Below the pieces are notes generated by a model. That model was not told where the DNA came from. It saw nothing but the letters and a program-made list of their open reading frames with translations, and did no database searches. Below are positions 22,159 through 43,812 of a stretch of DNA of 64,000 nucleotides, piece by piece (position 1 is the stretch's first letter; every line of letters starts with the position of its first letter). The DNA comes from Xanthobacteraceae bacterium (GTDB lineage: Bacteria; Pseudomonadota; Alphaproteobacteria; Rhizobiales; Xanthobacteraceae): positions 52,979 through 116,978 of the forward strand of contig JALHMF010000004.1 of NCBI GenBank assembly GCA_022844205.1. Reading direction: 5' to 3'. Made by a program: the position numbers and the translations under genes.

Positions 22159-23151
22159 ATGAAATTCAGGAAAACGATCGGGCGGGCAGCGCTCGCACTG
22201 ACACTTGCAATGCTGCCTTCGGCCATTGCAAACGCGCAAGACTACCCTTCGCGCACCATCACCCTTGTCGTGCCGCTGGCGGCCGGTACCGGCATGGATA
22301 CCGCCGCGCGCATCTACGGGGAAGAATTGTCCAAACGTCTCGGCAAGCCGGTGGTGATCGAGAACCAGCCGGGTGCGGCCATGATGACCGCGGCATCGTC
22401 GGTGGCGCGCGCGAACCCGGACGGTCACACGCTGCTGGTTGCCGCGATTGCGCCGATGGCGATCAATCAAACGCTCTACAAGCAGATTTCCTACAACCCC
22501 GACAAGGATTTCACGCCGATCGCCCTCTACGCGAAATCGCCGTTCGTTCTGATCGTGAACCCTTCTTCCGGAATCGACAGCATCGGCGCCTTCATGAAAA
22601 AGGCGAAGGAGAGTGCCGCCAATCCGATCACCTACAGCACGCCGGGTGCCGGCTTTCTGCAGCACCTGACGATGGAACACATGAAGCAGCAGTTCAAATT
22701 CGACGCGACGCATGTGCCGTATAAGTCCTCGCCGCAGGCGATCAGCGACGTGGTCGGCGGCCATGTGCAGTCTTCCATCGCGGAGATGGGCGCTTCGCTC
22801 GGCCTGATCCGCGAAGGCAAACTGAAGGCGCTGGCGGTAACTTCACTCAATCGGCTGAACAGCTTGCCGGATGTGCCCACGATTTCGGAAGCGACAGAAC
22901 TCAAGGGCTATGAGGCGGTGTCGTGGCATGTATTGCTGGCGCCTTCCGCCACCCCGCGTGCAATCGTGGACCGGCTGCACAAGGAGATTAAGGAAATCAC
23001 CGGCGACAGTGCATACAAGAGCCGCATTGCCGCGACCGGTCTCATTCCGATCGATACCGAGTCGATCGAGGATGTGACCAAATATATCCGTGCCGAACGG
23101 GCGCGCTGGAGTGGTGTGGTGAAGGCACTGGGCATGGAGGGATCGCAATAG
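22159..23151 (+). CDS. Bug/TctC-family tripartite tricarboxylate transporter substrate-binding protein
   Basis: About 330 aa from ATG 22159 (MKFRKTIGRAALALTLAMLPSAIANAQDYPSRTITLVVPLAAGTGMD). The YPSRxITLVVP...G..D block is the Bug-family N-terminal hallmark. Confidence 0.85.
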   Translation: MKFRKTIGRAALALTLAMLPSAIANAQDYPSRTITLVVPLAAGTGMDTAARIYGEELSKRLGKPVVIENQPGAAMMTAASSVARANPDGHTLLVAAIAPMAINQTLYKQISYNPDKDFTPIALYAKSPFVLIVNPSSGIDSIGAFMKKAKESAANPITYSTPGAGFLQHLTMEHMKQQFKFDATHVPYKSSPQAISDVVGGHVQSSIAEMGASLGLIREGKLKALAVTSLNRLNSLPDVPTISEATELKGYEAVSWHVLLAPSATPRAIVDRLHKEIKEITGDSAYKSRIAATGLIPIDTESIEDVTKYIRAERARWSGVVKALGMEGSQ

Positions 23152-27807: not shown

Positions 27808-29109
27808 TCAGCGTGTAACCGTGCGTTCGAACTGGCGCAGCATGGCGTTGCCGCGCTGCACGGCGCTGTCGAGCGCATCCTTCGCGGACTTTTTGCCCGC
27901 GAGTGCCGCCTCGAACTCTTCCGCCCAGACATCGCGCAACTGCACCATGTTGCCAAGCCGGAGACCGCGGGAGTTTTCCGTCGGCTCCTTGTTGGTCAGC
28001 TCCAGCAGCGGCGTCTCCAGATACGGCGCTTCCTTGTAGTAGCCGGACTCCTTTGTCTTGGCATAAGCCGCCTTCGTGATCGGCAGATAGCCCGACGATT
28101 TGTGGATCGCGACCTGGCGGTCGGTTTCCGACAGGAACGAGAAGAACTTCGCGACGCCTTTGTATTCGTCGGGTTTCTTGCCGCCCATCACCCATAGCGA
28201 AGCGCCGCCGATGATCGAGTTCTGCGGAGCGCCGGAAACATCGGGGTAATAAGGCATCGGCGCGTTGGTCCAGTCGAACTTCGCATTCGACTTCACGTTG
28301 CCGAAAAATCCCGACGAGGTGAGGAAGATCGGGCATTCGCCGGAGGTAAAGCGGCCTTCGCCCGTATTGGTGCGGCCGGAATAGTCGTAGGTCTTGTCCT
28401 TCTGCAATTCGATCAGCGTTTCGAGATGCTTCACGAGCAGCGGGTTGTTAAAGCGCAACTCCGTGTCGAAACCGTCAAGGCCGTTCGCCTTGGTGGAGAG
28501 CGAGACGTTGTGCCATGCCGACATCTGCTCGACGTTCACCCACGTTACCCAGGCATTGGAGAACCCGCAGGTGGCGTAGCCCGCGGCTTTCAGTTTTTTC
28601 GCCGCATCGAAGACTTCCGGCCAGGTTTTGGGGATCGACGCAACATTCGCCTTCTTCAGCGCATCGCGGTTGATCCACATCACCGTGGACGAAGAGTTGA
28701 AGGGGAACGAAAGCATCTCACCCTTTGATGTGGAGTAGTAACCGGTGATCGCGGAGAGATAGGCCTGCGGATCGAATTTCTCGCCGGCTTCCTTCATCAG
28801 CACATGCACAGGCTTCACGGCCCCGGTCGCCGCCATCATGGTGGCGGTGCCGACCTCGAATACCTGCAGGATGTGGGGTGCGTTGCCTGCGCGAAATGCG
28901 GCGATGCCGGCATTCATCGTGTCGGGATAGCTGCCCTTATAGGTGGGCACGACCTTGTATTCTTTCTGCGATTCGTTGAACTCGTTGGCCAGCCGGACGA
29001 CGACTTCGTTGTTGCCGCCCGTCATTGCGTGCCACCATTGGATTTCAACCTGTGCGGACGCGGGCGTCACATAGAAAGCTGCGGCCATGAAAATGGCGAA
29101 GCGGCGCAT
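27808..29109 (-). CDS. ugpB: sn-glycerol-3-phosphate-binding periplasmic protein
   Basis: 433 aa from ATG 29109 ([29 protein letters not shown]). [44 protein letters not shown] closely parallels my recollection of E. coli UgpB ([44 protein letters not shown]). Confidence 0.9.
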   Translation of the reverse strand: [433 protein letters not shown]

Positions 29110-29294
29110 TGATCCCTCCTCGGATGAACTTTGTCGGCGAGGCATTTTCCTGCCCCGTTGCGATCAGCTTACGGGAGAAAAGTGTCGTCTCCAACTGTAA
29201 GCTCGATATATGACAAGCCTTTGAAAATAATACGGTATTGGCTGAACCGCCGGAGGGAGAAAAAGCCTGTCCCGCCAATTCTTCAAGGGAGAAA

Positions 29295-30050
29295 TCAGCT
29301 TTTGATCCAGTACCCGCCGAAATCATCGACCTGCGCGATCGGCTCGTGGATTCCGTGCGCGGCCCGGAATTCGTCAACGGCTTCGCGCTGCGATTCAAAC
29401 AGGAAGTAATCGTCCACGATCAGCGTTCCGCCACGCGAAAGCTTTGCATAAAGGCAGTTCAATCCGTCCATGGTGCTTTCATACAAATCGCCATCGAGCC
29501 GCAGCACGGCGAGCGATTTCACCGGTGCTGCCGGAAGCGTATCCTTGAACAGGCCCTCGAGAAAAATCACCTGATCGTCGAGCAGGCCATAATGCGCAAA
29601 ATTTGCCTTCACTTCTTCAAGCGATACCGCAAACAGGCTGTTGCGATGAAAATCCGCGGCAAGGTCGGCCTCCGATCCGCGGGCGGGAGCGGGTGGTCCG
29701 GCGAACGTGTCCGCTGCGAACACGCGGCGGTTCGCAATGCCATAGGCCTTCAGCACCGCACGCATCATGATGCTGGCACCGCCCCGCCACACGCCCGTTT
29801 CCATGAAATCGCCGGGGATATTGGCCGAGAGCACCCGTTCGCATTCCTGGCGCAGGTTTTCCATGCGCTTGGCACCGATCATGGATGGCGCGGTGGCGGG
29901 CCAGTCCCATCCGTTTTCTCGAAATTCGTCGTTGAAGCCTTCGGCTTTCGATCCCGGCAGGGCCGGGTCGCGGTTCAGCCGTCCGATCAGACTCTCACGC
30001 ATGAGGTCGAGATAGGCCTGGACCGATGGATCGTCGGCGGGCGAGGGCAT
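29295..30050 (-). CDS. TylF/MycF/NovP-family SAM-dependent (sugar) O-methyltransferase
   Basis: 251 aa. GDFMETGVWRGGASIMMRAVL is the SAM-binding block and LRLDGDLYESTMDGLNCLYAKLSRGGTLIVDDY holds the metal-binding Asp residues typical of macrocin-O-methyltransferase-like enzymes. Confidence 0.85.
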   Translation of the reverse strand: MPSPADDPSVQAYLDLMRESLIGRLNRDPALPGSKAEGFNDEFRENGWDWPATAPSMIGAKRMENLRQECERVLSANIPGDFMETGVWRGGASIMMRAVLKAYGIANRRVFAADTFAGPPAPARGSEADLAADFHRNSLFAVSLEEVKANFAHYGLLDDQVIFLEGLFKDTLPAAPVKSLAVLRLDGDLYESTMDGLNCLYAKLSRGGTLIVDDYFLFESQREAVDEFRAAHGIHEPIAQVDDFGGYWIKS

Positions 30051-30146
30051 GGCTGCGCCGTTCTACCGAAACTCTGAAAACCTCACAAACTTGCGGAATT
30101 CGTTGAACTCCGGCTATGGCTGTGCGTTGCGCTTCGCAGGGTGAGG

Positions 30147-31169
30147 ATGGCAAGCAAGAAAATCTTGATTACCGGCGGGGCCGGGTTCGTCGGCTGCAAC
30201 GCGGCGAAGTATTTTGGCGAACGCAACTGGAACGTGACCGTGCTCGACAATCTTTCGCGCACCGGCACGGAGAACAATCTGCAGTGGCTGCGCGATGAAA
30301 CCGCGTTCGATTTTGCGAAAGCAGACGTTCGGGAACGCGCGGCCGTGGACAGCATCGTCTCCGAGGGCCGTTTCGACGCCGTGCTGCATCTGGCGGCGCA
30401 GGTCGCTGTCACAACCTCGGTGATCGATCCGCGCGCGGATTTCGAAGCCAATGCGCTCGGCACGTTCAACATGCTCGACGCGGTCCGGCGTTATCGTCCC
30501 GACACGGTTTTCATCTTTGCCTCGACCAACAAGGTTTACGGCAAGATCGTCACCGCTGAAACGGTGCTGCGCGGCAGCCGCTATGAGTATGTGAACCGCC
30601 CGCACGGCATCAGTGAGAGCGAGCCGCTCGATTTTCTTTCACCTTATGGCTGCTCAAAAGGTGCCGCCGATCAATACGTGCTCGACTTTTCCCGGATTTA
30701 TGGGATTCCGGCGACTGCGTTCCGCCAATCCTGCATCTACGGCACCCGTCAGTTCGGCGTAGAGGATCAGGGCTGGGTTGCCTGGTTTGCGATTGCGTCG
30801 CTGCTGGGTCGGGAGATCACGATTTTCGGCGACGGCAAGCAGGTGCGCGACGTCCTGCATGTGGACGATCTGCTGCAGGCTTATGAGGCGGCAATCCGCG
30901 CACCGGACAAGATCGCCGGTGAGGCGTTCAACGTGGGTGGCGGCCCAAAACAGGTCATGTCGCTCCTGGACCTGATCGGAATGCTGGAGAAAAAGTTCGG
31001 CCGGAAGATTCCGCTGAAGTTCGACGGCTGGCGGCCCGGTGACCAGCAGGTTTACATTAGTGATATTCGCAAGCTTGACCGCCTGCTGGGGTGGAAGCCG
31101 GAAAAGGATGCCGCCGCCGGTGTTTCCCAACTGATCGAATGGGTAAAGCAGAACCGCTCACTGTTCTGA
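30147..31169 (+). CDS. NAD-dependent NDP-sugar epimerase, CDP-paratose/tyvelose 2-epimerase family
   Basis: 340 aa from ATG 30147. KILITGGAGFVG, VLDNLSRTGTENNLQWL, STNKVYG, SPYGCSKGAADQY and GDGKQVRDVLHVDDL are colinear with my recollection of Salmonella Tyv/RfbE. Confidence 0.8.
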   Translation: MASKKILITGGAGFVGCNAAKYFGERNWNVTVLDNLSRTGTENNLQWLRDETAFDFAKADVRERAAVDSIVSEGRFDAVLHLAAQVAVTTSVIDPRADFEANALGTFNMLDAVRRYRPDTVFIFASTNKVYGKIVTAETVLRGSRYEYVNRPHGISESEPLDFLSPYGCSKGAADQYVLDFSRIYGIPATAFRQSCIYGTRQFGVEDQGWVAWFAIASLLGREITIFGDGKQVRDVLHVDDLLQAYEAAIRAPDKIAGEAFNVGGGPKQVMSLLDLIGMLEKKFGRKIPLKFDGWRPGDQQVYISDIRKLDRLLGWKPEKDAAAGVSQLIEWVKQNRSLF

Positions 31170-31446
31170 ACTCTGAACAGCTTTCTCGCGGCATTAACGA
31201 TGGGCGTAAATTTCTGTCCGGCTGTGTTTGCCGTCCAACATTCGCCGCGTTGGATAAACATCGTGCTGGTGGAACTTTTAGAAGTCCATGTGCGTTCTAC
31301 ACCGGCTTTCAGACGTGCCGAAAAGTGGTTACAGTTCAAGCCTGTAGCTGGAGTCTTCCTGAATAATTATTCATCGGCCAGATGCATCGTCCAACGCGGC
31401 GCTAGGGCGGCTCGCGGCGGACGGATGTAACCCGGAGCGTGTAAAC

Positions 31447-32412
31447 ATGGACAGCGGTCGCAGAGTTCTGGTAACCGGCGGCGCTGGTTTTATCGGTTCT
31501 CATCTTTGCGAGCGGTTGCTGGCTCAGGGCAGCGAAGTCCTCTGCGTCGATAATTTTTTCACATCCACCCGTTCCGGCCTTGTCCATCTGATGGATGACC
31601 CACGCTTCGAGCTGATGCGACACGATGTCTGTTTTCCGCTCTATGTCGAAGTGGAAAATATCTACAATCTCGCTTGTCCAGCTTCGCCCGTTTCCTACCA
31701 GATGGATCCGGTACAGACGACGAAGACCAGCGTGCATGGCGCGATCAACATGCTCGGTCTTGCCAAGCGCCTGAAAGCGAAAATCCTGCAAGCTTCCACC
31801 TCGGAAGTGTACGGCGACCCGGCGGTTCATCCGCAGCCGGAAGAATATTGGGGTAACGTCAATCCAATCGGCCCGCGCTCCTGCTATGACGAAGGCAAGC
31901 GCTGCGCGGAAACGCTTTTCTTCGACTATCACCGGATGCACCAGCTTCGCATCAAGGTGGCGCGTATCTTCAATACCTATGGGCCGAGGATGCAGATGAA
32001 CGACGGCCGTGTCGTTTCGAATTTCGTCGTGCAGGCGCTGCGCAACAAGGACATCACCGTCTATGGCGACGGCGAGCAGACCCGTTCTTTCTGCTACATT
32101 GACGACATGGTCGATGGGCTGATCCGCCTGATGGAGTCCGGAGACTCGATCACCGGTCCGATCAATCTTGGTAACCCGGGGGAGTTCACGATTCGCGAAC
32201 TGGCGGAAATAGTTCTCAACATCACGGGCTCCAGTTCCAAGATCGTTCACCGTCCGCTTCCCATGGACGACCCGAAACAGCGCAAACCCAATATCAGCCG
32301 CGCCCAGGAACTGCTGAACTGGCGCCCGACCGTAAAGCTGCGGGAAGGCCTTGCGCGTACCGTGGCGTATTTCGAAAAACAGATTGCATCCGAGCCGCTA
32401 AAGACGGTCTGA
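31447..32412 (+). CDS. UDP-glucuronate decarboxylase (UDP-xylose synthase)
   Basis: 321 aa. [54 protein letters not shown] and [11 protein letters not shown] form the UXS/ArnA-decarboxylase-type signature set. Confidence 0.85.
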
Positions 32413-32436
32413 TTCGCTCGGGGGGAACACTATCCA

Positions 32437-33423
32437 ATGAGAATTCTCGTCACGGGCGGGGCTGGGTTCATAGGCACCCATCTGAGCCGGAGGCTGCTTG
32501 CCGACGGTCACGAAGTGTCGGTGGTCGATAACGAATCCAACGGCGACCCGTCGCAGCTCCTGAAAGAAGTCCGTTATATGCGTGGCGATGTCGTCCGTCC
32601 GGAAGAGATGGAGCCTGTGTTCGCCCGCGGCCTCGACGCGGTCTGTCATGTAGCGGGCCAGGTATCGATCATCCGCTCGTTCTCGGACCCGGTTGCCGAT
32701 CTGCGGACGAATGTTGAAGGTACGCTGAACGTGATCAATCTGTGCCTGAAATACAAAGTGCCGCGCCTGATCTATGCTAGCTCCATGACGCTTTACGGTC
32801 AGGTGGAGACCGTGCCGACGCCGGAAACCGAACCATGTCTGCCGGATTCCTATTACGGAATCACCAAACACGCCGCGGAACGTTACGTCCATTCCACCGC
32901 CGAGCGGCCGGACTTCGATTTCGATTTCAAGGTGACTTCGCTGCGGATGTTCAGTGTCTACGGGCCGGGGCAGGCCTATAACAATCCCTATCAGGGCGTG
33001 CTTGGCATTTTCTCCGGCAATATCCTGCGTAACGAGCCGATTACTATTTTTGGGGACGGCGAACAGACGCGCGATTTCATCTATATCGACGATGTCATCG
33101 ATGGCTGGGTGCGTGCATTGCATGCGCCGGAAGCCGCCGGAAAGATCATTAATCTGGGCAGCGGCCGTTCCACCTCCATCAATCAGCTCGCGGAAGCGAC
33201 GATCACCGCGTTCGGTTATCCGAAAGGCGGCTATCCGCTTGTGCGCAAGCCGGGCCGTCCGGGCGAGCAGCGCAAGGTGCAGGCGGACATCGCGCAGGCG
33301 AGGGCGGTGCTTGGCTGGGCGCCGAAAACGCCGTTCAAGACAGGCCTTGCAAAAACCGTCGAGTGGGCGCGCAAGGAATTTTCCACAATCGCGCTCGCAG
33401 CCGCAAGCGGAGCCGCCCGTTGA
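32437..33423 (+). CDS. NAD-dependent NDP-sugar epimerase/dehydratase (GalE-like extended SDR)
   Basis: 328 aa with [14 protein letters not shown], the catalytic YGITKHAAE (YxxxK) and GDGEQTRDFIYIDDV. Confidence 0.8.
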   Translation: MRILVTGGAGFIGTHLSRRLLADGHEVSVVDNESNGDPSQLLKEVRYMRGDVVRPEEMEPVFARGLDAVCHVAGQVSIIRSFSDPVADLRTNVEGTLNVINLCLKYKVPRLIYASSMTLYGQVETVPTPETEPCLPDSYYGITKHAAERYVHSTAERPDFDFDFKVTSLRMFSVYGPGQAYNNPYQGVLGIFSGNILRNEPITIFGDGEQTRDFIYIDDVIDGWVRALHAPEAAGKIINLGSGRSTSINQLAEATITAFGYPKGGYPLVRKPGRPGEQRKVQADIAQARAVLGWAPKTPFKTGLAKTVEWARKEFSTIALAAASGAAR

Positions 33424-34523
33424 AGCTTCTGCTGGTTACCTCGGTTGACGCCTGGACCCGCAGCACCGCCACCATTCACAAATGGGTGGAGACCGGCCGT
33501 GCACTCGGTCACGATGTCTCGGTCTACGGCGAGCCGAATGGCGAACTGCCGGCGCTGAATTTTACGACTGATACCTCCGGGTACGATCTGGCGCTTTTTG
33601 TCGTGCAGGTGCCGAGCGATTTTCCGGAAATGCCTTATCTGGCGCGCGTGCTCGACAGTGTTCCACGCGAGCGCCGCGTGCTTGCCGATTTGTGGGGACG
33701 CTATAACGAGACGATCCGGATCGACCACGACTTCAATCATCTGGAAAAACTCGACGGCCATCTTGGCTGGGAATGGGACGACGCGTTTCGCTCCGTATCG
33801 GGTCGCATCGTGCAGCCATCGTTGACGCCGCTCCGGGCGGATGTGCAGCCGTTCCTGTTTCACGGATTTGATTCCGCCTCGATCGTGAAGCCGCATGCTT
33901 CGGCGAAAGATGCCGCCGCCGCCTGGGCGAAAAAACCGCTCGGCATGATGTATGTGGGCAGCAACTGGCAGCGTTGGGAGCAGCTTCGCGCTTTTCTGGA
34001 ACAATATGGAAAAATCCGGGATCGTGCTGGCCCGGCGGCTCTCGTTGGCTGGGACTGGAGCGCTCGTCCCGACTGGGCAGTCGAAAAGAGCATCAAAGGC
34101 GTCGATACCGATCCCGCGTTACTCGCGAGACTGAACGTCGATATACGTCACGGTGTACGTTTCGATGAGATCGTGGCGCTGCTCGGTCAAGCCAAATTCG
34201 CGCCTGTGTTTCATCGCCCGCTGTTTCGGCATCTGGGCTTTGTCACCAATCGCAGCTTTGAGACTTTTTACGCCGATACGATTCCGGTTCTGATGCTGCC
34301 GGAGAATTTCGTGCGCTCGATTTACGGCGACACGGCGCTGAAGCTCGTTCCGGCTGCGGGCGTGAGCACATTCCTGGCGGACGCGATCGCCAACCCCGAA
34401 CCGTATTGGGATGCGGTGCTGCGGACGAGGCAGCATCTGGCGCAGCATCATTCATACAAGATCCGCTTCGATGAACTGGCGGCCATCGCGAAATTTCCGG
34501 TCTCAGCGGGGACAGCGCGGTGA
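33420..34523 (+). CDS. uncharacterised GT-B/CgeB-like (Glyco_trans_1_2-like) protein, paralogue 1 of 3
   Basis: About 367 aa from TTG 33420 (TTGA overlap with the epimerase stop). The track ORF from 33363 would overlap the epimerase by 60 nt. It shares conserved blocks with the next two genes: GHDVSVYG, VPRERRV, DFNH, QPSL, YVGSNW, RSFETFYADTIPVLML and IYG. No TM segment or signal peptide is evident. Confidence 0.6.
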   Translation: MKLLLVTSVDAWTRSTATIHKWVETGRALGHDVSVYGEPNGELPALNFTTDTSGYDLALFVVQVPSDFPEMPYLARVLDSVPRERRVLADLWGRYNETIRIDHDFNHLEKLDGHLGWEWDDAFRSVSGRIVQPSLTPLRADVQPFLFHGFDSASIVKPHASAKDAAAAWAKKPLGMMYVGSNWQRWEQLRAFLEQYGKIRDRAGPAALVGWDWSARPDWAVEKSIKGVDTDPALLARLNVDIRHGVRFDEIVALLGQAKFAPVFHRPLFRHLGFVTNRSFETFYADTIPVLMLPENFVRSIYGDTALKLVPAAGVSTFLADAIANPEPYWDAVLRTRQHLAQHHSYKIRFDELAAIAKFPVSAGTAR

Positions 34524-35578
34524 ATTGTTTGTTCGTCATGAAACATCGCGGCAACGCCGGAAATACACATGCGGTAGCGAACTATATTCGGGTCGCGCCT
34601 AAATTCGGGCACGAGATTGCATTATTTGGCGATCCGCAGCCGCATCTGCCCGAGTTGAAATTCTCCCGCGACATCCGCGCCTTCGACCGTCTCGCGTATC
34701 TGTTCGAATCCGAAATATACCGGTTAAGCCCGCTGCATGAAGCGACCATGCTGGGCTCCGTTCCGAAGCAGCATCGTATCGTTTTCGACATGGACGGCAT
34801 GTATAACCCGGTGATCGAACTCGACGGATACGATTTCAATCATCGTTCCGAGGATGAGCGCGCGGCGTGGGCGGCGCATTACGAGGCGCTTTCAAATAGT
34901 GTGGCGAAGCCGACCATCGCCAAGCCGGATCATCCGCGCGTAAACCCGATGATTTTCTACGGCTACGATTCCACACTGGAACTTCCACTGGAAACGGTAC
35001 CGACAAAGGAATTCGACATTCTGCACGTCGGCCATAACTGGTGGCGCTGGCGGGAAGTGGAATCGGAATTGTTGCCGGCGTTCGAAAAAATCCGGGATCA
35101 GGTCGGCGAGATCGGCTTTATCGGACTTTGGTGGGACCGGCCTCCCCCAGAAGGACCGGAAGCAGGCCCGCAACTTGCATTCCAGTCCGATCCCGAGCGC
35201 TTCCAGCGGCTCCGCATCAAGACAAGCGAAGCCGTAATGTACACCGATGTCATCCGCACAATGAGCAGTGCCAGGATCAACATTTTCACCCAGCGTCCGT
35301 TGCTGCATCACCTGAAGCACCTGACGCTGAAGTATTTCGAGATTTTTTACGCCGACACCATCCCGCTCCTGATGCTTGACCGCGATCTGGTCGAGGCGGT
35401 CTATGGGCCTGCCGCGCGAGAGCTTGTATTGCCCGGCCGTGTCGCGGAAAAAATCCTCGATGCCCTGAGCCGCCCGGATCACTACCGTGAAGTCGTGTGC
35501 GATGTGCGGCGCCATCTTGCTGAAAATTTTTCGTACGATCGGCGAATGGAAGAACTCGTAGCCGCGTTGAAGAACTAG
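34520..35578 (+). CDS. uncharacterised GT-B/CgeB-like protein, paralogue 2 of 3
   Basis: 352 aa from GTG 34520 (GTGA overlap with paralogue 1). Shared blocks are GHEIALFG, VPKQHRIVFDMDGMYN, DFNH, HVGHNW, KYFEIFYADTIPLLML and VYG. Confidence 0.6.
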   Translation: MNCLFVMKHRGNAGNTHAVANYIRVAPKFGHEIALFGDPQPHLPELKFSRDIRAFDRLAYLFESEIYRLSPLHEATMLGSVPKQHRIVFDMDGMYNPVIELDGYDFNHRSEDERAAWAAHYEALSNSVAKPTIAKPDHPRVNPMIFYGYDSTLELPLETVPTKEFDILHVGHNWWRWREVESELLPAFEKIRDQVGEIGFIGLWWDRPPPEGPEAGPQLAFQSDPERFQRLRIKTSEAVMYTDVIRTMSSARINIFTQRPLLHHLKHLTLKYFEIFYADTIPLLMLDRDLVEAVYGPAARELVLPGRVAEKILDALSRPDHYREVVCDVRRHLAENFSYDRRMEELVAALKN

Positions 35579-35600
35579 TTGCTCCCGGAGGAGCAGCAAA

Positions 35601-36650
35601 ATGAAGCTGGTGTTCGTGTACTGGGGTTACGAGAACGCCGGAAGCATGCTGGATTTGCGCGGCTATGCGCGGGCGGCACGCGGCCTCGGGCATGAGGTCA
35701 CGGTTTACGGGCCGCCAAACGATTATTTCAAGCTGGATTATTCGCAGGATTTGTCGCGAGCCGACGCGGTGGTCTTCGTGTTCGAATGGACGACGCATCT
35801 GCAGTTCGGGGACCGCCTCGACTGGGCGCGGTTACTCTCTGCCGTTCCCCGCAGCCGCCGTGTCGTCATTGATTGCGACGGCGCCTACAACGATCCGATC
35901 GAGTTCCGCGGCGATTACAATCATCGTACGCAAGAGGAGAGCAGCAAGTGGATCGAGGTATGCGACAGCATCTCCGACAAGATCCTGCAACCCACGCTGC
36001 GTCCGAAGCGAAAGAACGTACGTCCGTTTTTCTTCCATATCTACGACTCGACCTGGGAAACGCCGCTGGATTTCTCCGCCAAGGAATTCGGCATGATCTA
36101 TGTGGGTCATACGAAATTCCGCTGGCATGGCATGTCGCAGGTCTTAAAAGCGATGGAGCCGGTTCGTGAAAAGCTTGGCCGCGTCGCGTTAGTAGGCGAT
36201 GGCTGGGATCGCGCGATGGAGTGGACCGAGTTTCAGGACATCAAGGCGAATTACTATGTGGACCGGGAATACCTGAAGAAGCTGAACGTTGAAGCGCTGC
36301 CTCCGGTGCCTTTTCCGAAGGTTACGGAGACCATGAACAGGGGCATTTTCAACCCAGTCGTTTATCGGCCGCTGTTCGAGTATCTTGGCATGGTCACCTG
36401 CCGCACGTTTGAAACACCGGCGGCGGGCACGATTCCGCTGTTCCTGCTGGACGAGGAATATGTGACTGAAATCTACGGGCCGCGCGCATCGCAGCTTTTG
36501 CTGGGCGGCGATGCGAGCGGAAGAATCGCCGACGTTGTCACACGTCCCGGGCATTATGCGGGCATCGTGCAGGACATCCGCAAGGATTTTGCAGTCCGGC
36601 ACAGCCCTGAGTCGCGGCTGCGTGAATTGATCGGCATCATTGGGGAGTGA
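35601..36650 (+). CDS. uncharacterised GT-B/CgeB-like protein, paralogue 3 of 3
   Basis: 349 aa with the RBS GGAGGAG 7 nt upstream. Shared blocks are GHEVTVYG, VPRSRRVVIDCDGAYN, DYNH, QPTL, YVGHTKF, RTFETPAAGTIPLFLL and IYG. Confidence 0.6.
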   Translation: MKLVFVYWGYENAGSMLDLRGYARAARGLGHEVTVYGPPNDYFKLDYSQDLSRADAVVFVFEWTTHLQFGDRLDWARLLSAVPRSRRVVIDCDGAYNDPIEFRGDYNHRTQEESSKWIEVCDSISDKILQPTLRPKRKNVRPFFFHIYDSTWETPLDFSAKEFGMIYVGHTKFRWHGMSQVLKAMEPVREKLGRVALVGDGWDRAMEWTEFQDIKANYYVDREYLKKLNVEALPPVPFPKVTETMNRGIFNPVVYRPLFEYLGMVTCRTFETPAAGTIPLFLLDEEYVTEIYGPRASQLLLGGDASGRIADVVTRPGHYAGIVQDIRKDFAVRHSPESRLRELIGIIGE

Positions 36651-38029
36651 GCGTTTTGCTCGGACGCAACCAGGCGCTCAAGGCCGATGGATTGGGCGCG
36701 CCCTCTGCTGGCGCGCATGCACTGCGCATGCAGCTCAATTACGGCTTCAATGAAATTTACGGCTGGTGGCATCTTTCGGAGGGGGAGCACCGGGAGCGCA
36801 TCCAGCGCCGTCTGCGGCTGATGGGAACCAAGGTTATTCGCGTCTTCGCGTTCGATCAGCCCGTGCCGGACCCAGTGAAGGACTGGCGTTCGTTTTCCGC
36901 CTACCTGCAAGGTGTGCTGGATGCGGGCGCGAAGCCGATGGTCACCTTCGCAAAATTCCATCCGCCGTTCGGCGACGCCCGCAATATTGGCAATTTCGTC
37001 TCGCGATGCTCCGAACTTGTCTGGAGCTGCATCGAGCAGTGGGGCGGCGACGAAGTGAAGGACTGGTACTGGTGCGTCTGGAATGAGCCGAACAACCTCC
37101 TTGTCGGCGGCGATCTCAGCTTTTCCGAATACAAGCGCATCTACAAGGAAGTTGCCGCTGCGGTGCTGGTGCAACTTGAGCCGCATCTTCGCGGCCGCAA
37201 GCTGATGCTGGGCGGCCCCGCCATCGACGGTACGCACCGCATGTACTGGATGGACTGGATCGCGCGCCTCGTGAACGAGGTCGATGAGAAAATGATCGGC
37301 TTCGTCTCCTGGCATCGTTACGGCGACTGGCGCCCGGCGGTGCCCAGCGCATCGCTCGGCCTTGAAATGTGGGGCTCGCCCGATTCCCCGAACGGCCGCG
37401 TATTCGAAGCGCTCCTGATGGCGCAGACGCCGGCCTATGAAGCGAATGCGCGCGGCGTCGGCAGGCTCATCGGTGGACGAAAAATCCTGAACGTCTGCGG
37501 CGAACTGAATGCCATGTCGCATCACGAGCAATATTACACGCTCGGCCTGAACCAGAATGCGTTTGGCGGCGCCTATTATTGCTCGGCACTGATCGGGCTG
37601 ATCCGCGGCGGTGCCGAGCTTGAAATGCGCTGGACGGCCACCATCCATACCGATGCTTATGGTCTTGTCGCTATGAATGGCGATCCGACGCCGGCCGGCC
37701 TTGCCAAGCAGATTTTCGCGCAGCATGTGCGCCACGGCGATCTCATCCGCTTCCCGCGTAACCGCCTCGGAGCGACGGACGTGGACGCGATTTTCTCGGA
37801 TGGCGAGGACGGCCGCCGCAGCGGCGTGTTTGTCAACATGTCTTCGAATCCGGAGACGCTCGACGCAGCGGAATGGGATGATGCGCTGAAAACTTGCGGC
37901 GATATTCTGCTCGTGGACACCGGCACCGGAAACAGCGTAATGCGGCTGCCCTTCGATGGAAAAATCCGCTTCAATGGGTATGGAGTAGCGGTCGTTACCA
38001 ACCGCGCTGACGCGACTGAGATCGGCTGA
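36647..38029 (+). CDS. clan GH-A (TIM-barrel) glycoside hydrolase-like protein, GH39/GH5-like, with no signal peptide
   Basis: 460 aa from GTG 36647 (GTGA overlap with paralogue 3). WYWCVWNEPN carries the NEP acid/base motif of clan GH-A. A candidate nucleophile lies in NVCGELNAM. The N-terminus MSVLLGRNQALKADGLGAPSAG is not signal-like. Confidence 0.5.
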   Translation: MSVLLGRNQALKADGLGAPSAGAHALRMQLNYGFNEIYGWWHLSEGEHRERIQRRLRLMGTKVIRVFAFDQPVPDPVKDWRSFSAYLQGVLDAGAKPMVTFAKFHPPFGDARNIGNFVSRCSELVWSCIEQWGGDEVKDWYWCVWNEPNNLLVGGDLSFSEYKRIYKEVAAAVLVQLEPHLRGRKLMLGGPAIDGTHRMYWMDWIARLVNEVDEKMIGFVSWHRYGDWRPAVPSASLGLEMWGSPDSPNGRVFEALLMAQTPAYEANARGVGRLIGGRKILNVCGELNAMSHHEQYYTLGLNQNAFGGAYYCSALIGLIRGGAELEMRWTATIHTDAYGLVAMNGDPTPAGLAKQIFAQHVRHGDLIRFPRNRLGATDVDAIFSDGEDGRRSGVFVNMSSNPETLDAAEWDDALKTCGDILLVDTGTGNSVMRLPFDGKIRFNGYGVAVVTNRADATEIG

Positions 38030-38074
38030 TTGAAATGTTCGCGGGCATGAGCCTGCGGGATAAGGGAGAGAAAC

Positions 38075-38635
38075 GTGGATAAGGCGTTTGGATGGATCGG
38101 GGAAATTTTCCAGACTCTCCTGAGAGTGGTGCCCTGGCTCGTGATCGTGCCGGCGACACACCGGGGAGTGGCATTTGTCCGTGGCTTCAAGGTCAAGGAG
38201 TGGCCACCCGGCTTGCACTGGTACTGGCCGGTTGTGACCACCTACAAGCTGATGACGGTCGTCCGCCAGACGCAGCGTATTCAGTCCAAGGTCATCATGA
38301 CCAAGGATCTGAAAACCGTAACCGTCGGCGCCCTCGTGACCTATGAGGTGGACGATGTGGTTTCCGCGATCGCCAAGGTCGCCGACCTGCCGTCCGACAT
38401 CATGGAGCGATCGCAGGGCGCCATTCTCTCAGTGGTTGCGGAAAGCACCGTTGAGGAAATCCAGAACAATCGCACGCTGTTCAACCAGCAGCTGACCGAG
38501 CGGGTCGGCAATGTGCTGAACGGCTATGGCGTGCAGATTCTGCAAGCGCAGCTTACCGAGTTCGCGCCTTGCCGCGCGCTGGCGATTAACGGCAACGTGG
38601 CGGTTGGCAGTTACACGCTATGGACCGGATTTTGA
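38075..38635 (+). CDS. SPFH/band-7 domain protein with N-terminal membrane anchor
   Basis: 186 aa from GTG 38075. It has a hydrophobic N-terminus (IFQTLLRVVPWLVIVP) followed by an SPFH-like core (RGVAFVRGFKVKEWPPGLHWYWP ... MTKDLKTVTVGALVTYEV ... YGVQILQAQLTEF). Confidence 0.65.
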   Translation: MDKAFGWIGEIFQTLLRVVPWLVIVPATHRGVAFVRGFKVKEWPPGLHWYWPVVTTYKLMTVVRQTQRIQSKVIMTKDLKTVTVGALVTYEVDDVVSAIAKVADLPSDIMERSQGAILSVVAESTVEEIQNNRTLFNQQLTERVGNVLNGYGVQILQAQLTEFAPCRALAINGNVAVGSYTLWTGF

Positions 38636-38662
38636 GATCGAGAGCGCGCGCTCCCGTTCTCC

Positions 38663-39046
38663 TTATTTTTTCTTGCCGTCCTTGTCGAACTGCTTGAGAA
38701 ACGCGATGATATCGGCAATGCGCTGCTCGCCCTTCAAGCCCGCATACACCATCTTGGTGCCTGGAATTTTTTCTTTCGGGTTCTGGATATATTCGGCAAA
38801 GACCTTCTCGTCCCAGACGATGCCGGACTTCTTGTTGGCATCGGAATAATTATAGCCATCGACCGTTCCGGCCGTGCGCCCGAAGAGGCCGTTGAGCAGG
38901 GGCCCGACGGTATTCTTCGCCGTCTCGCCGACCTGATGGCAGGCGCGGCACTGCACGAATACTTTCTCGCCGGCTGCGGCATCTTGCGCCTGCGCGGAGG
39001 GTACGAAGCTAAGGATGGCAGCCGCAGTTAGTACGAACTTCTTCAT
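38663..39046 (-). CDS. class I c-type cytochrome (cytochrome c2/c550-like), periplasmic
   Basis: 127 aa with signal peptide MKKFVLTAAAILSFVPSAQA, haem site CRACH and distal Met block PGTKMVYAG. Confidence 0.85.
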   Translation of the reverse strand: MKKFVLTAAAILSFVPSAQAQDAAAGEKVFVQCRACHQVGETAKNTVGPLLNGLFGRTAGTVDGYNYSDANKKSGIVWDEKVFAEYIQNPKEKIPGTKMVYAGLKGEQRIADIIAFLKQFDKDGKKK

Positions 39047-39068
39047 GGTTTCCTCGATGGATTTGTTT

Positions 39069-40058
39069 TCAGGATAAAGGCGTGAAACGAAATTCCGTTC
39101 CCTTTGTCTCGACCATCCCGTGGCCGGGCCAGGCGATATGGAATGCGATCAGCGGCATTCGCTCTGCGGCAAGCAGACCGAGCATTTTCTTCCGCGTCGC
39201 AATTCCTTTCTCGTGATCGAAATCGGCGCCGACGCGCCAGCCGGGGCGTGCGAAGGAAATTACACCATTGTTAAACACATCACCGCCGATCAGCAGGCGC
39301 TCCTTGCCGCTTTCGAGCATCACGCACATGTGGCCCGGCGTATGACCGGCGGAATCGATATAGCTCAGCCCGGGCGCAACCGCGTCGCCTGCTTTGCGGC
39401 GTTCGATCTTGTTCTCGATTTTCTTCAGGATGCGCGCGGTTCCAATCGCCATGCCCTTCAGCCAGTCCGGCGCCTTCTCGGCGGTTTTGGGATCCATCCA
39501 GAAATCCCATTCGGGGGCAGAGATAATGTAGCTCGCATTGGGGAAACGAGCGCCTTCGTCGAAATCGTCCACGGCGCCCCAGAGATGATCGGCATGCGCA
39601 TGGGTGAAGACGACCTTGGTGATTTTCGCGGGATCGATGCCCGCGGCTTCCAGATTTTCCACGAGCTTGCCCGCGGTCGGCTGGAAGTTGGGACCGGAGC
39701 CCGCGTCAATCAGCACCAGATCGTTGCCGGTTTTGATCAGCGTTACGTTCGTCTGCGATTGTGAAAATTCCTCCGGCTGCCCGTGTGCTTTCAGCAGCGA
39801 GGCGATCTCCGCCGCTGCATTGTCCGGCAGCGCAAACGATTGCGGCACCATCAGCGTGCCGTCGCTGAACACGAAAACCTCAAGCGCTCCAAGTTTTCGC
39901 CTGAATGGAGCGGTGGCGGCGAGGGAAGGCGAGCTCGCCATTCCGGTGACGATACCTGCCGCCGCCATCCCGAGCAGCACGCGGCGGCGATGCGGAAACC
40001 TGTCCCGCATCGCGCGCTTCGTGTTGTTCCTTAAATCAGCCGGACCGGAATTCATCAC
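39069..40058 (-). CDS. soxH: Tat-exported MBL-fold metallohydrolase, SoxH-like
   Basis: 329 aa with Tat motif HRRRVLLGMAAAG and metallo-beta-lactamase motif VVFTHAHADHLWG. It sits directly downstream of soxF (ATGA overlap), matching the position of soxH in the Paracoccus sox cluster. Confidence 0.7.
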   Translation of the reverse strand: MMNSGPADLRNNTKRAMRDRFPHRRRVLLGMAAAGIVTGMASSPSLAATAPFRRKLGALEVFVFSDGTLMVPQSFALPDNAAAEIASLLKAHGQPEEFSQSQTNVTLIKTGNDLVLIDAGSGPNFQPTAGKLVENLEAAGIDPAKITKVVFTHAHADHLWGAVDDFDEGARFPNASYIISAPEWDFWMDPKTAEKAPDWLKGMAIGTARILKKIENKIERRKAGDAVAPGLSYIDSAGHTPGHMCVMLESGKERLLIGGDVFNNGVISFARPGWRVGADFDHEKGIATRKKMLGLLAAERMPLIAFHIAWPGHGMVETKGTEFRFTPLS

Positions 40059-41329
40059 GCGAAGATGTCGGCGATGATGCCCGAGTACCAGCCCATGTTT
40101 TCTTCCTGGGTTTGCTTGCGAACTTCCGGCGACTCGCCGGTCTTCGAGAGAAAAGTCGAGCTGGCGAAAATCTTGCCGTCCTTCGCCTCGTAGCTGCCGC
40201 CGATCTTGATGGTGTCGTCGGTTTCGATGAGGCTCCAGCAGGTGTTGGTGTAGCGGGCCGGGAACGTATCCGACTTGATTAGGTCTCCCCGGATCATCAT
40301 GGCCGCGACCTTCGCCTGGCTGTTGGCGGAAAAACCGGACTTCGGCATGTCGCCCGGAATGCAGCTGTCGCCCACGATGTAGATGTTCTCGTCCATCGCG
40401 GACTGCATGCTCTCCGGTTTGATCGGGCAGAAGCCGCTGTCATTGGCGAGCTTCGCGTCGAGGGCGATTTTCCCGGCCGATTGCGCCGGGATGACGTTGA
40501 TGAGGTTTGCCTTGTAGGTGGCGAGGTCGGTCGTCACCGTCATCGCCTTGGCGTCCACGCCTTTCAGGCCGCCGTGCATTTTCGGATCCTGCCATTCGAT
40601 CATGCCGGGGTAATGCTTTTCCCAGCCTTCGACGAACAGCGCCTGCTTCGAGAAAGCAGGCTTCGGATCGATGCAGATGATCTTCGATTTCTTATGGCCC
40701 TTCGCCTTGAGCACATGCGCCATCATGGAGAGGCGTTCATAGGGTCCGGGCGGGCAGCGGAAAGGATTCGGCGGGGCGATCATGACGATGGTCGCGCCGT
40801 CGGAAAGGCTGTCGAGCTGCTTCTTGAGAAGCACCGTTTGCGGGCCGGCTTTCCAGGCATGCGGCAGCTGTTCTTCCACCGCCTGCGAATAGCCCGGAAC
40901 GGATTCGTATTTCAGTTCGATGCCCGGTGCGAGTACCAGCTTGTCGTAGCCAATCGTGGAGCCGTCGGCGAGCCGCACGGTCTTCTTCTCGCGGTCGATG
41001 CCGGACGCCATCTGCTGGTTGAGGCGGACGCCGTATTTCGAGGCAAGCGCCCCGTAGCTGTGGGTGATCGAATCCAGCGGACGGAATCCGCCGAGATACA
41101 AATTCGAGTGGAAGCAGGTGGTGAAGCTCTTGGCCGGCTCCACGAGCGTCACGTCGATGGCGCCCTTGGCATCGCGTGCGATGTATTTTGCGACTGTGGC
41201 GCCGCCCGGGCCACCGCCGACAACGACGACACGCGGCTTGGCCTGCGCGATGGCGGGCGCGTAAAGACCCGAGGAAAGGGCGACTGCACCCGCGCCCGCG
41301 AGAAACTGTCTGCGATTGGTAGAAAACAT
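40055..41329 (-). CDS. soxF: flavocytochrome c sulfide dehydrogenase flavoprotein (SoxF/FccB type)
   Basis: 424 aa from ATG 41329, preceded by GGGAGG. It has Tat signal NRRQFLAGAGAVAL, FAD fold VVVVGGGPGGATVAKY and an FCSD-type C-terminal domain. Confidence 0.85.
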   Translation of the reverse strand: MFSTNRRQFLAGAGAVALSSGLYAPAIAQAKPRVVVVGGGPGGATVAKYIARDAKGAIDVTLVEPAKSFTTCFHSNLYLGGFRPLDSITHSYGALASKYGVRLNQQMASGIDREKKTVRLADGSTIGYDKLVLAPGIELKYESVPGYSQAVEEQLPHAWKAGPQTVLLKKQLDSLSDGATIVMIAPPNPFRCPPGPYERLSMMAHVLKAKGHKKSKIICIDPKPAFSKQALFVEGWEKHYPGMIEWQDPKMHGGLKGVDAKAMTVTTDLATYKANLINVIPAQSAGKIALDAKLANDSGFCPIKPESMQSAMDENIYIVGDSCIPGDMPKSGFSANSQAKVAAMMIRGDLIKSDTFPARYTNTCWSLIETDDTIKIGGSYEAKDGKIFASSTFLSKTGESPEVRKQTQEENMGWYSGIIADIFA

Positions 41330-41354
41330 TGCGTACCTCCCGAGTATTTTTTGA

Positions 41355-41708
41355 CTACTGTTTTCCATGCCCCGCTTGCGGCAGGCTTCCGAAAAATGCG
41401 GCAAGGGCCGCCACTTCCTTCTCCGACAGCCGGCCCGCGATCGTCTGCATCACCGGATTGTCGCGCTTTTTGCTGCGATATTCGTTCATGATCTCAATGA
41501 AACTCGATTCTGGCCAGCCCACGATCGCCGGGATGCCGACGAAGTTACCGCTCAACTGATGGCAGGTCACGCACTCGCTGGAAAGATATTGGCCATAGGC
41601 TTTGTCGCCGGAAGTCTGTGCTGTTCCCGGCAGCCAGGGTGTTATGGCGAGAATCAAAATGAAAAAAAACAACAAAGACGGAGCGTATATTGCGGCCGGG
41701 AAATTCAT
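41355..41708 (-). CDS. soxE: small monohaem c-type cytochrome (SoxE/FccA-like partner of SoxF)
   Basis: 117 aa from ATG 41708, with a hydrophobic signal and a single CVTCH haem site. It lies between soxD and soxF. Confidence 0.65.
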   Translation of the reverse strand: MNFPAAIYAPSLLFFFILILAITPWLPGTAQTSGDKAYGQYLSSECVTCHQLSGNFVGIPAIVGWPESSFIEIMNEYRSKKRDNPVMQTIAGRLSEKEVAALAAFFGSLPQAGHGKQ

Positions 41709-42418
41709 TCCACTCTCGGGCCTTTGCCCGTTTCCGGCGTCACGTCGATTACACGCGCGCGGCCTGTGACTTTCGCCTCGCCGGGGGCGCAGTTCTTCAT
41801 GCATGGTTCTTTTCGCCAGAACGCGCGCTCCGATTTTTCGCGGTCATCTTCGGTGAAATTCGCCTGGTTCGGAAGTTTGATCGAAGAAAAATTCTTGTCA
41901 TTCAACTCGAATTTCTCATCTTTAATCACGTCGTTCAAATACAGCACATAGGCGGTCACCGCATAAAGCTCGTCGTTGGTGAGCGTCTGGGCGGCCCCAT
42001 AAGGCATCGCCCGGCGGATATAGTCGATCAGCGTGGAGGCATAGGGCCAGTAGGATCCGACCGATTTCACCGGATCGTGACTGGCGAGCGTAGCATTGCC
42101 GCCGCTGAGGATCGGCCAGCGTCCCGCGCTCTCGCCGAACTCGCCGTGGCATGAGGCACAGCGCTCGACATAGATCGGCTCGCCTTCCTTTACCGTACCT
42201 TTTCCGGGCGGAAGTCCCTGGCCGTCCGGGCGGATGTCGATGTCCCAGCCGGCGATTTCCTCGGGCTTCGCTTCGCGGCCGATGCCGAGCGGCTTCGGTT
42301 TCGCTTTCTGTGCCTGTGCATGAACAAGGCGCGGCTCGATCATTTGCGTAACGCCGAAAGTCAGCACGGCGACCAAAAACGCTCCGAACAGCGCGAAGGC
42401 CTTAGGAGACTTCGACAT
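41705..42418 (-). CDS. soxD: sulfane dehydrogenase cytochrome c subunit SoxD (short monohaem form)
   Basis: 237 aa from ATG 42418 (MSKSPKAFALFGAFLV), overlapping the soxC stop by 17 nt. It has a single CASCH site plus the WPYASTLIDYIRRAMP block typical of SoxD. Confidence 0.8.
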   Translation of the reverse strand: MSKSPKAFALFGAFLVAVLTFGVTQMIEPRLVHAQAQKAKPKPLGIGREAKPEEIAGWDIDIRPDGQGLPPGKGTVKEGEPIYVERCASCHGEFGESAGRWPILSGGNATLASHDPVKSVGSYWPYASTLIDYIRRAMPYGAAQTLTNDELYAVTAYVLYLNDVIKDEKFELNDKNFSSIKLPNQANFTEDDREKSERAFWRKEPCMKNCAPGEAKVTGRARVIDVTPETGKGPRVE

Positions 42419-43691: not shown

Positions 43692-43719
43692 GACTGGCTC
43701 CGTCAGATGCCCGACAATC

Positions 43720-43735
43720 ATGCAAGAAATTGCAT
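43720..43735. promoter_or_regulatory. perfect 6-4-6 palindrome ATGCAAgaaaTTGCAT in the AT-rich soxB-soxC spacer
   Basis: The 121-bp spacer is the only sizeable gap inside the minus-strand sox gene string and is visibly AT-rich. TTTGCA is repeated nearby (ttttgcattttgc at about 43753-43765). Confidence 0.4.
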
Positions 43736-43812
43736 ATGTCGAGATAAAAAAATTTTGCATTTTGCGGCGAAGGGGACACTGGTTCGCCGTAGAAAATACG
43801 ACCAAGAGACAA

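Follow-up and report, generated by a model that had tools for sequence, protein, structure and literature searches.

The mycobacterial MMP cluster, which comprises ManT, MeT1, MeT3 and MmpH, encodes no exporter and makes a cytoplasmic methylated glycan (PMC9883506). Its hydrolase, MmpH, is a cytosolic enzyme that is essential for MMP biogenesis and folds as an (α/α)6-barrel (PMC9883506). Here, we analyzed a nine-gene locus at positions 29295–38635 of a 64,000-nucleotide stretch of contig JALHMF010000004.1 from a Xanthobacteraceae bacterium (assembly GCA_022844205.1), the whole of which is referred to below as the window. The genes encode a TylF-type sugar O-methyltransferase (TylF), three short-chain dehydrogenase/reductases (SDR1, the UDP-xylose synthase-like UXS, and SDR3), three paralogues of glycosyltransferase B (GT-B) type (PA, PB and PC), a glycoside hydrolase-like protein (GH), and a short SPFH protein. 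No description of the locus was found in the searchable literature. Our favored reading, held tentatively and a little short of an even chance, is that of a conserved operon for building a defined hetero-oligosaccharide, usually an O-methylated one, at the cytoplasmic face of the inner membrane.

The MMP cluster and the present locus are both compact and export-less, and both combine soluble GT-B chemistry with a sugar O-methyltransferase and a dedicated cytosolic hydrolase. ManT (PDB code 7qsg) is among the top structural matches of PC, a likeness that extends to the generic GT-B fold only. By contrast, the two systems as wholes share no sequence homology. GH has a GH39-like TIM barrel in place of the (α/α)6-barrel, and three fixed paralogues stand here against one processive glycosyltransferase in MMP. 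The NDP-sugar epimerases and the SPFH protein have no counterpart in the MMP cluster, MeT1 structures are absent among the PDB matches of TylF, and MMP belongs to Actinobacteria whereas the present locus is found in Alphaproteobacteria. Because the proteins are non-homologous beyond the GT-B fold and the fold of MmpH differs, the resemblance is, on this comparison, one of logic only, and the locus is not a member of the MMP-type systems.

Further described systems share individual elements with the locus. In the Psl system of Pseudomonas aeruginosa, a GH39-fold hydrolase, PslG, is likewise encoded inside a glycan biosynthesis operon, and PslG is a top structural match of GH. However, PslG is membrane-anchored or periplasmic whereas GH has neither a signal peptide nor a transmembrane segment, and psl encodes priming, polymerase and export functions, none of which accompany the module here. 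The CgeB/YkvP-type glycosyltransferase-like proteins of Bacillus, which serve spore-surface glycosylation, are soluble and act in the mother cell without export machinery; they are connected to the paralogues by PF13524, the only Pfam family that touches them (PB and PC), but the scores lie around the gathering threshold, PA is unmatched, there is no sporulation context, and the paralogue family constitutes a distinct rare clade. As in the Uxs/Uxe pair of Sinorhizobium meliloti, the UXS gene is directly followed by a GalE-like SDR gene, a pairing that by analogy suggests UDP-xylose and UDP-L-arabinose as donors; unlike in that pair, the GalE-like SDR3 stays with the module in the 17 of 35 loci that have no UXS. 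Finally, the SPFH protein resembles stomatin and QmcA in that an N-terminal hydrophobic segment precedes the SPFH domain, but it is short, lacks the coiled-coil/cap region and an NfeD partner, and is fixed together with glycan enzymes.

Conservation and organization of the module

With one genome scanned for each GTDB species, 60 loci of ~20 kb each were recovered. Short peptide patterns were used, so that more divergent carriers may have been missed. Nearly all of the loci are from Hyphomicrobiales (Hyphomicrobium, Filomicrobium, Rhodomicrobium, and metagenome-assembled genomes (MAGs) of Hyphomicrobiaceae and Xanthobacteraceae), the other carriers being one myxobacterium, Paraliomyxa miuraensis, and one Planctomycetota-labelled MAG. 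The order SDR3-PA-PB-PC-GH-SPFH is constant across the 60 loci. Co-occurrence was counted in the 35 loci with enough flank. SDR1 is adjacent to the module on either strand in all 35, SDR3 is directly upstream of PA in all 35, and SPFH is nearby in 34, whereas TylF (29/35) and UXS (18/35) vary in position and orientation. The core is therefore made up of seven genes (SDR1, SDR3, PA, PB, PC, GH and SPFH), and UXS and TylF are frequent accessories rather than fixed members. This conserved core agrees with the first-pass annotation, which had proposed a coherent, self-contained glycan-building locus. The same annotation had matched three sugar-nucleotide enzymes to three glycosyltransferase-like proteins and suggested a trisaccharide-type unit, possibly with xylose; that suggestion is weakened, because about half of the loci carry no UXS in cis, TylF is not constant either, and only two of the SDR enzymes are invariant.

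All-against-all clustering of the ORFs of the 60 loci revealed no conserved neighbor beyond the nine genes, and the other large ORF clusters are antisense shadow ORFs. The nine genes are 99–100% identical at the protein level to contigs from activated-carbon and drinking-water metagenomes. When the whole locus was compared with plasmids by megablast, only the UXS segment matched (74–77%), and a tblastn of PC against plasmids yielded nothing; a rhizobial megaplasmid trait was therefore rejected. Recent horizontal acquisition was rejected as well, as the G+C content of the locus (0.585) matches that of the window (0.596). A defense-system reading was set aside because PADLOC-type features are lacking and the components are all of glycan-enzyme types; no formal defense scan was made.

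The nine open reading frames (ORFs) were all found in the ORF list and family scans, and the domains, junctions and spacing reported for them in the first pass were reproduced. The TylF gene (29295–30050) is on the minus strand and the others are on the plus strand: SDR1 (30141–31169), UXS (31447–32412), SDR3 (32437–33423), PA (33420–34523, TTG start), PB (34520–35578), PC (35601–36650), GH (36647–38029) and SPFH (38075–38635). The SDR3 stop and the PA start overlap in TTGA (read as cgTTGAag at 33420), PA and PB overlap in GTGA (gcgGTGAat at 34520), and PC and GH overlap in GTGA (gaGTGAgc at 36647). PB and PC are spaced by 22 nt, with a GGAGGAG ribosome-binding site before 35601. A terminator-like hairpin followed by a T-run, detected as a pattern match in a consensus scan and in the sequence, lies at 38640–38671 (+), 3' of the SPFH stop codon, and probably marks the end of the operon. 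On the basis of the coupled junctions and this hairpin, the long operon extends from UXS through SPFH, with SDR1 as a separate unit and TylF transcribed divergently. A scan of 28500–39500 by Rfam E-value found no riboswitch and no small RNA. The divergent SDR1-SDR3 intergenic region of ~340 bp, compared in 12 loci, is poorly conserved except around the ribosome-binding site and contains no conserved small ORF or motif.

Several individual loci deviate from this organization. The PA-PB-PC-GH block occurs twice in tandem in a Hyphomicrobiaceae MAG (L038, 2652–12415). The Planctomycetota-labelled MAG (L059, 4888–9240) carries four paralogues owing to a duplication of PB; its SPFH gene is followed immediately by a fragment of a UDP-glucose dehydrogenase gene, and a DrrA-type ABC ATPase is encoded upstream. 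A module of the Hyphomicrobiales type is also present on contig JBNOAI010000005.1 (370 kb; L021/L005) of assembly GCA_050283925.1, which is labelled Leptospira interrogans. A 21-kb stretch of this contig has a G+C content of 60%, which is far from the composition of Leptospira, and the contig is almost certainly a contamination of that assembly.

The GT-B paralogues and the GH39-like hydrolase

PA (367 aa), PB (352 aa) and PC (349 aa) are 30–35% identical to one another over their full length. Their scores against PF13524 (Glyco_trans_1_2; cutoff 25 bits) are 25.5 bits for PB and 23.6 bits for PC, while PA has no Pfam match; a precomputed PF13524 match is present in many PC orthologues. Because a profile of the three proteins gave only chance matches against PDB sequences (E > 0.3), a comparison at the level of the fold was required. 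An AlphaFold2 model of PC (pLDDT 81, pTM 0.82) retrieved 306 Foldseek matches at E ≤ 1e-3, and the 50 listed are GT-B transferases together with several UDP-GlcNAc 2-epimerases that share the fold. The query-normalised TM values among these 50 range from 0.39 to 0.64. The matches include the T4 β-glucosyltransferase (BGT; E 1.4e-9), the T4 α-glucosyltransferase (AGT), GlgM, ManT, PimA, BshA and SenB, at TM values of 0.5–0.64. Since none of them stands out, PC is, as judged from the model, a minimal GT-B enzyme that belongs to no solved family. The same fold is predicted for PA and PB from their identity to PC. This is in line with the GT-B-like character that had been ascribed to the paralogues, and the fold comparison points to no characterised family outside the glycosyltransferases.

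The motifs YVG(H/N)..RW, RP(L/I), T.R.FE and T.P are invariant in the three paralogues and nearly so in the family, and by likeness to GT4-type enzymes they constitute putative binding residues for the nucleoside diphosphate (NDP)-sugar donor. A D-x-N-H motif (D105/H108 in PC) is invariant too and is a candidate catalytic base; if it holds that position, the mechanism would be inverting. The paralogues are acidic to neutral (isoelectric points of 6.0–6.7), and their N-domains are acidic, unlike those of typical lipid-acting GT-Bs, which points weakly away from lipid acceptors. The median identities among orthologues are 61% for PA, 63% for PB and 71% for PC. As each paralogue forms its own orthologue group in a fixed order, compared with only 30–35% identity between paralogues, the triplication is old, with all three copies maintained.

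The family is rare and comprises only 484 representative clusters at E ≤ 1e-3 in an exhaustive profile search of 1.84 billion proteins. PC itself has 1276 relatives in 90%-identity clusters, of which 120 were listed, with identities to PC of 70–100%. Viral contigs contain no relatives of either subfamily of these glycosyltransferases, and a phage DNA-glucosylation reading, which the matches to T4 BGT and AGT had prompted, was therefore rejected; the prominence of the T4 enzymes most likely reflects the small size of the paralogues.

The second, single-copy subfamily serves as an outgroup. Its members are of ~345 aa, carry conserved YVGNNW.RW and TPRMFET motifs, and were seen in Streptomyces, Catenuloplanes and metagenomic contigs. 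All five outgroup contexts are soluble glycosylation clusters, with GT2, GT1/GT4, PhyH, polysaccharide pyruvyl transferase, SDR, HAD and methyltransferase genes, and no exporter was found among the five. The Catenuloplanes cluster adds an EryCIII-like glycosyltransferase, a MycE-type methyltransferase, DegT, a halogenase and a radical SAM enzyme, and one member of the family is fused to a GT2 domain. These contexts independently support a glycosyltransferase role for the paralogue family.

The outgroup genes, located at ~10001–11050 of each of the loci L066–L070, belong to an uncharacterised soluble glycosylation cassette with a recurring partial order: PhyH, GT2, family glycosyltransferase, PS_pyruv_trans, SDR, HAD, GT1. 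The order is nearly whole in L068 and L070. In L069, PhyH and the family glycosyltransferase are accompanied by GT1 genes and methyltransferases. All that L066 and L067 have of this order, besides the family gene, is the GT2 gene, located directly or closely upstream. Integrase, recombinase, helicase or NB-ARC genes are found near four of the five cassettes, so that the cassette may be mobile; the exception, L066, has only an IS4-type transposase fragment at the edge of the locus. A 475-aa neighbor of the family member in L067 was considered as a relative of GH and rejected as unrelated.

The outgroup bears on a different explanation of the module, namely that the acceptor of the paralogues is a protein or a small-molecule aglycone synthesized elsewhere, as in the spore-surface glycosylation of Bacillus or in natural-product tailoring, followed by methylation by the TylF-type enzyme, with GH deglycosylating or activating the conjugate. 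The secondary-metabolite-like cluster of Catenuloplanes would fit this explanation, as would PF13524 (CgeB/YkvP-type) as the sole Pfam family touched, the natural-product enzymes NovP and MycF as nearest solved relatives of the methyltransferase, and the suitability of soluble, acidic glycosyltransferases for a soluble acceptor. However, no conserved gene for an aglycone or substrate accompanies the module in the 60 genomes, its housekeeping-like conservation and vertical spread in Hyphomicrobiales are atypical of secondary-metabolite tailoring, and the G+C content of the locus carries no compositional trace of recent transfer. We consider this explanation improbable.

GH matches PF01229 (GH39) with 36 bits (cutoff 26), over only ~120 residues, and its sequence matches the xylosidase XynB1 (PDB code 2bs9; E 3e-8) around the WNEPN acid/base motif. 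The AlphaFold2 model (pLDDT 82) consists of a TIM barrel with a C-terminal β-sandwich. Foldseek returned XynB1 as the best match (E 7.5e-16), followed by PslG (5bx9, 9g17) and by GH79, GH30 and GH51 enzymes. Across 21 GH orthologues, N146-E147-P148 and G285-E286 are invariant. The former follows strand 141–144 of the model (strand 4), and E286 is located in strand 281–288, at the end of strand 7, a position from which it is predicted to be the nucleophile. With its barrel and sandwich, the NEP acid/base glutamate and the strand-7 glutamate, the modeled protein has the features of clan GH-A and of GH39, and the hydrolase-like gene product had been placed in the same clan before. As both catalytic glutamates are invariant and at the right positions of the model, GH is expected to be a working retaining glycosidase. 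The N-terminus of the maximal ORF lacks hydrophobic character, shows little conservation and is disordered in the model.

The kinship of GH with GH39 β-xylosidases such as XynB1 could also indicate a catabolic or salvage locus, in which GH would act as an intracellular β-xylosidase-type enzyme on imported oligosaccharides, together with the FGGY kinase and the sugar ABC importer encoded directly upstream in the window, and the other genes would remodel the released sugars. The importer and the kinase, however, are not conserved beside the module elsewhere, GH is translationally coupled to the three glycosyltransferases and always follows them, and the TylF-type methyltransferase and the NDP-sugar epimerases are biosynthetic enzymes. 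Such a role is hardly credible.

Sugar-nucleotide enzymes, methyltransferase and SPFH protein

The three SDR enzymes are of the extended type (PF01370/PF16363). SDR1 aligns over its full length (residues 7–337) to the CDP-tyvelose 2-epimerase of T. atlanticus (TaTyvE; PDB code 9rl0) with 352 bits, and to the Salmonella structure 1orr with 295 bits. TaTyvE interconverts CDP-glucose and CDP-mannose, and its TNK segment, YxxxK pair and Gln205/Trp207 loop are catalytic or substrate-positioning elements (PMC13098431). The alignment with SDR1 retains STNKVYG, YGCSK, DQGW and WR.(G/S)DQ, and the VAM of TaTyvE corresponds to VAV. SDR1 thus has the sequence features of the CDP-tyvelose 2-epimerase family and is a predicted NDP-hexose C2-epimerase, its specificity being a prediction only.

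UXS aligns with 400 bits to human UXS1 (4gll, 2b69; residues 5–314), and its DNA is 74% identical to UXS genes of Sinorhizobium fredii megaplasmids; related plasmid genes are annotated as UDP-glucuronic acid decarboxylase. The product is, by this similarity, a UDP-glucuronate decarboxylase (UDP-xylose synthase).

SDR3 is a GalE-like, putative NDP-sugar 4-epimerase. Its nearest match is the UDP-glucose 4-epimerase of T. maritima (4zrm; 204 bits), and it carries the ASSMTLYG and YxxxK motifs. Its score against TIGR01179 (galE), 170 bits, is under the cutoff, and it falls under the equivalog cutoffs of every NCBIfam model. Its substrate need not be UDP-xylose, since SDR3 is retained where UXS is missing. 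The nearest plasmid-borne homologue of SDR3 (60% identity) is found on plasmid p2 of Azospirillum brasilense Sp7 (L071, 89007–107948), between genes for GDP-mannose 4,6-dehydratase and UDP-glucose/GDP-mannose dehydrogenase, in a cluster that also includes UXS and an undecaprenyl-phosphate glucose phosphotransferase. Because of these GDP-mannose-type neighbors, SDR3-type enzymes may act on GDP-sugars in some contexts.

TylF is a strong member of its family (PF05711, 290 bits against a cutoff of 23). The first-pass annotation had called it divergent, a description that holds for its direction of transcription and not for its sequence. Its PDB matches are 4cdz (243 bits), NovP (2wk1; 239 bits) and MycF (205 bits), so that its nearest solved relatives include natural-product sugar O-methyltransferases; no literature turned up on the PDB codes 4cdz and 5i10. 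From these matches, the product is assigned to the sugar O-methyltransferases of the TylF/NovP/MycF type and is predicted to be metal-dependent.

The SPFH protein (186 aa) matches PF01145 with 85 bits, and its PDB matches are the stomatin homologue 2rpb (E 1.4e-8) and archaeal stomatin cores. Its residues 11–171 align to residues 9–170 of the 305-residue QmcA of Escherichia coli (8z5g). As the protein ends at residue 186 and the alignment stops at residue 170 of QmcA, the protein lacks the C-terminal coiled-coil/cap region that builds the known SPFH cages. No 19-residue window reaches a Kyte-Doolittle value of 1.6 in any of the nine products, and none of them has a signal peptide or a strong transmembrane segment. 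The N-terminus of the SPFH protein peaks at 1.50 and is only moderately hydrophobic. Of the earlier description as a membrane-anchored SPFH protein, the domain is therefore well supported and the anchor less so, while the lack of such segments in the other products was upheld. No description of SPFH-glycosyltransferase operons was found in the literature.

Genomic surroundings and the proposed pathway

The window was screened against Pfam with 45 ORFs, which include every gene within ~5 kb of the locus and, farther off, ORFs from ~250 aa upward. No export, priming or polymerase machinery was found among them. When 116 ORFs from the flanks of ~55 related loci were compared with Pfam, 129 families were matched, most often response regulators (6) and M20 peptidases (4). 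Among the families matched by at least two of these ORFs, which are the ones listed, none serves polysaccharide export, priming or polymerization; a DrrA-type ABC ATPase lies near the module in one locus. The absence of Wzx/Wzy, ABC exporter, priming and outer-membrane polysaccharide export (OPX) genes, first noted in the window, thus extends to the related loci, where wzx/wzy or ABC export genes are not regular neighbors. By its gene content, the locus is not a classical Wzx/Wzy-, ABC- or synthase-dependent surface-polysaccharide locus. That the product would be cytoplasmic, as had been proposed, is read from the local absence of an exporter only. Since lipopolysaccharide (LPS) core and glycolipids are built on the cytoplasmic face and need no exporter in the locus, a surface destination is a serious alternative.

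The most probable of the other explanations is accordingly an envelope glycoconjugate (an LPS core or O-chain cap, a glycolipid or a lipid-linked glycan) that would be put together at the cytoplasmic face and then brought to the surface by the housekeeping MsbA/Lpt system or a generic flippase encoded elsewhere. LPS-core-type pathways employ soluble or peripheral GT-Bs and work without a locus-encoded exporter, the membrane-anchored SPFH protein is a core member of the module, and the 60%-identical SDR3 homologue of Azospirillum is part of a classical lipid-carrier-dependent polysaccharide cluster. O-methyl-xylose and O-methyl-mannose are reported constituents of the LPS of some phototrophic Hyphomicrobiales; a literature search on O-methyl sugars and polysaccharides of Hyphomicrobium and its relatives found nothing. 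On the other side, lpx, waa, kdt and lipid-carrier genes never recur in the flanks, the locus has no priming transferase, cytosolic hydrolases of the GH39-like kind are not known to take part in the assembly of LPS cores, and the paralogues have N-domains that are acidic where lipid-acceptor GT-Bs usually have a basic surface, a weak argument. We regard this explanation as less likely than the favored reading, though as a serious alternative to it.

The genes around the locus vary between genomes. A sulfur-oxidation (sox/FCSD) set lies directly downstream in the window (38663–47524, mostly on the minus strand) and is not conserved beside the module in the related loci. It comprises a cytochrome c, a metallo-β-lactamase-fold protein, a flavocytochrome c sulfide dehydrogenase, a SoxCD-like molybdoenzyme with its cytochrome, a SoxB-like 5'-nucleotidase, SoxZ, SoxY and SoxA. 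The remaining window genes have catabolic and transport functions. Large subunits of xanthine-dehydrogenase-family molybdopterin hydroxylases (1351–3735 (−) and 11856–14573 (+)), a catechol dioxygenase (21246–22121) and TctC receptors (22102–23151 and 61075–62052) look like an aromatic or heterocycle catabolic neighborhood. A 573-aa protein encoded 20 kb away (59229–60950 (+)), whose sulfatase-superfamily domain is confined to the C-terminal half (280–464), recalls membrane-anchored phosphoethanolamine/phosphoglycerol transferases in its architecture. Negative AT skews of −0.32 at 16001–18000, over BPD_transp_2 (16003–17875), and of −0.18 at 50001–52000, over Sulf_transp (50126–51547), probably stem from T-rich codons for hydrophobic residues and not from a structural feature.

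In the favored reading, the synthesis of an oligosaccharide at the cytoplasmic face of the inner membrane, the two epimerases and, where present, UXS would supply unusual sugar donors, likely a hexose of the CDP/NDP-mannose type obtained through epimerisation at C2, a UDP-sugar epimerised at C4, and UDP-xylose. The three non-redundant GT-Bs would each add one distinct linkage in turn, on an acceptor that is not encoded in the locus, and the TylF-type enzyme, like NovP, MycF and TylF, would place a methyl group on a hydroxyl of a sugar that has already been transferred. The cytosolic, retaining GH39-like enzyme may trim or recycle the product, comparable to MmpH in the mycobacterial pathway or to PslG in Psl, and the stomatin-like protein without coiled coil would hold the enzymes or their product to the membrane or arrange them there.

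Several points weigh against this reading. The cytoplasmic destination is inferred from the absence of exporters only, and housekeeping flippases of the MsbA type could export a lipid-linked product. The product, the acceptor and the enzyme activities of all members are predictions from sequence; Pfam support is marginal for PB and PC and nil for PA, and the roles of the donor-binding residues are assigned by analogy. The addition of one sugar by each glycosyltransferase is an assumption, and a hetero-oligomer or different acceptors could be involved instead. Genes for primary donors (glucose-1-phosphate cytidylyltransferase, UDP-glucose dehydrogenase) are not in the locus, with the exception of the Ugd fragment in the Planctomycetota-labelled MAG. 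Moreover, SPFH is missing beside the module of Paraliomyxa and is, therefore, not strictly required.

A bolder version of the favored reading, which we think unlikely, is that Hyphomicrobiales make a new intracellular or inner-leaflet O-methylated oligo- or polysaccharide, a functional counterpart of the mycobacterial polymethylated polysaccharides, on a minimal stomatin-like scaffold with a three-enzyme assembly line and a recycling glycosidase; the SPFH protein would then be the first to be dedicated to a glycan pathway. The strict composition of the module, its linkage to an SPFH protein, the cytosolic hydrolase and the parallel to the mycobacterial polysaccharides are unusual, yet many conserved glycan clusters are uncharacterised. 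As the module is present in cultured carriers (Filomicrobium insigne, Hyphomicrobium sp. CS1BSMeth3, Rhodomicrobium sp. Az07 and Paraliomyxa miuraensis), the question is directly testable. If the favored reading is correct, abundant environmental Hyphomicrobiaceae and Xanthobacteraceae of drinking-water filters, soils and sediments would make a methylated glycan that bypasses classical export, and the locus would represent a second, independent case, besides mycobacterial MMP, of a glycosyltransferase, an O-methyltransferase and a dedicated hydrolase combined without an exporter. It would also assign a function to the very rare GT-B family, tie a minimal SPFH protein to glycan synthesis, and hint at what TyvE-like C2-epimerases do physiologically in settings other than 3,6-dideoxyhexose pathways.

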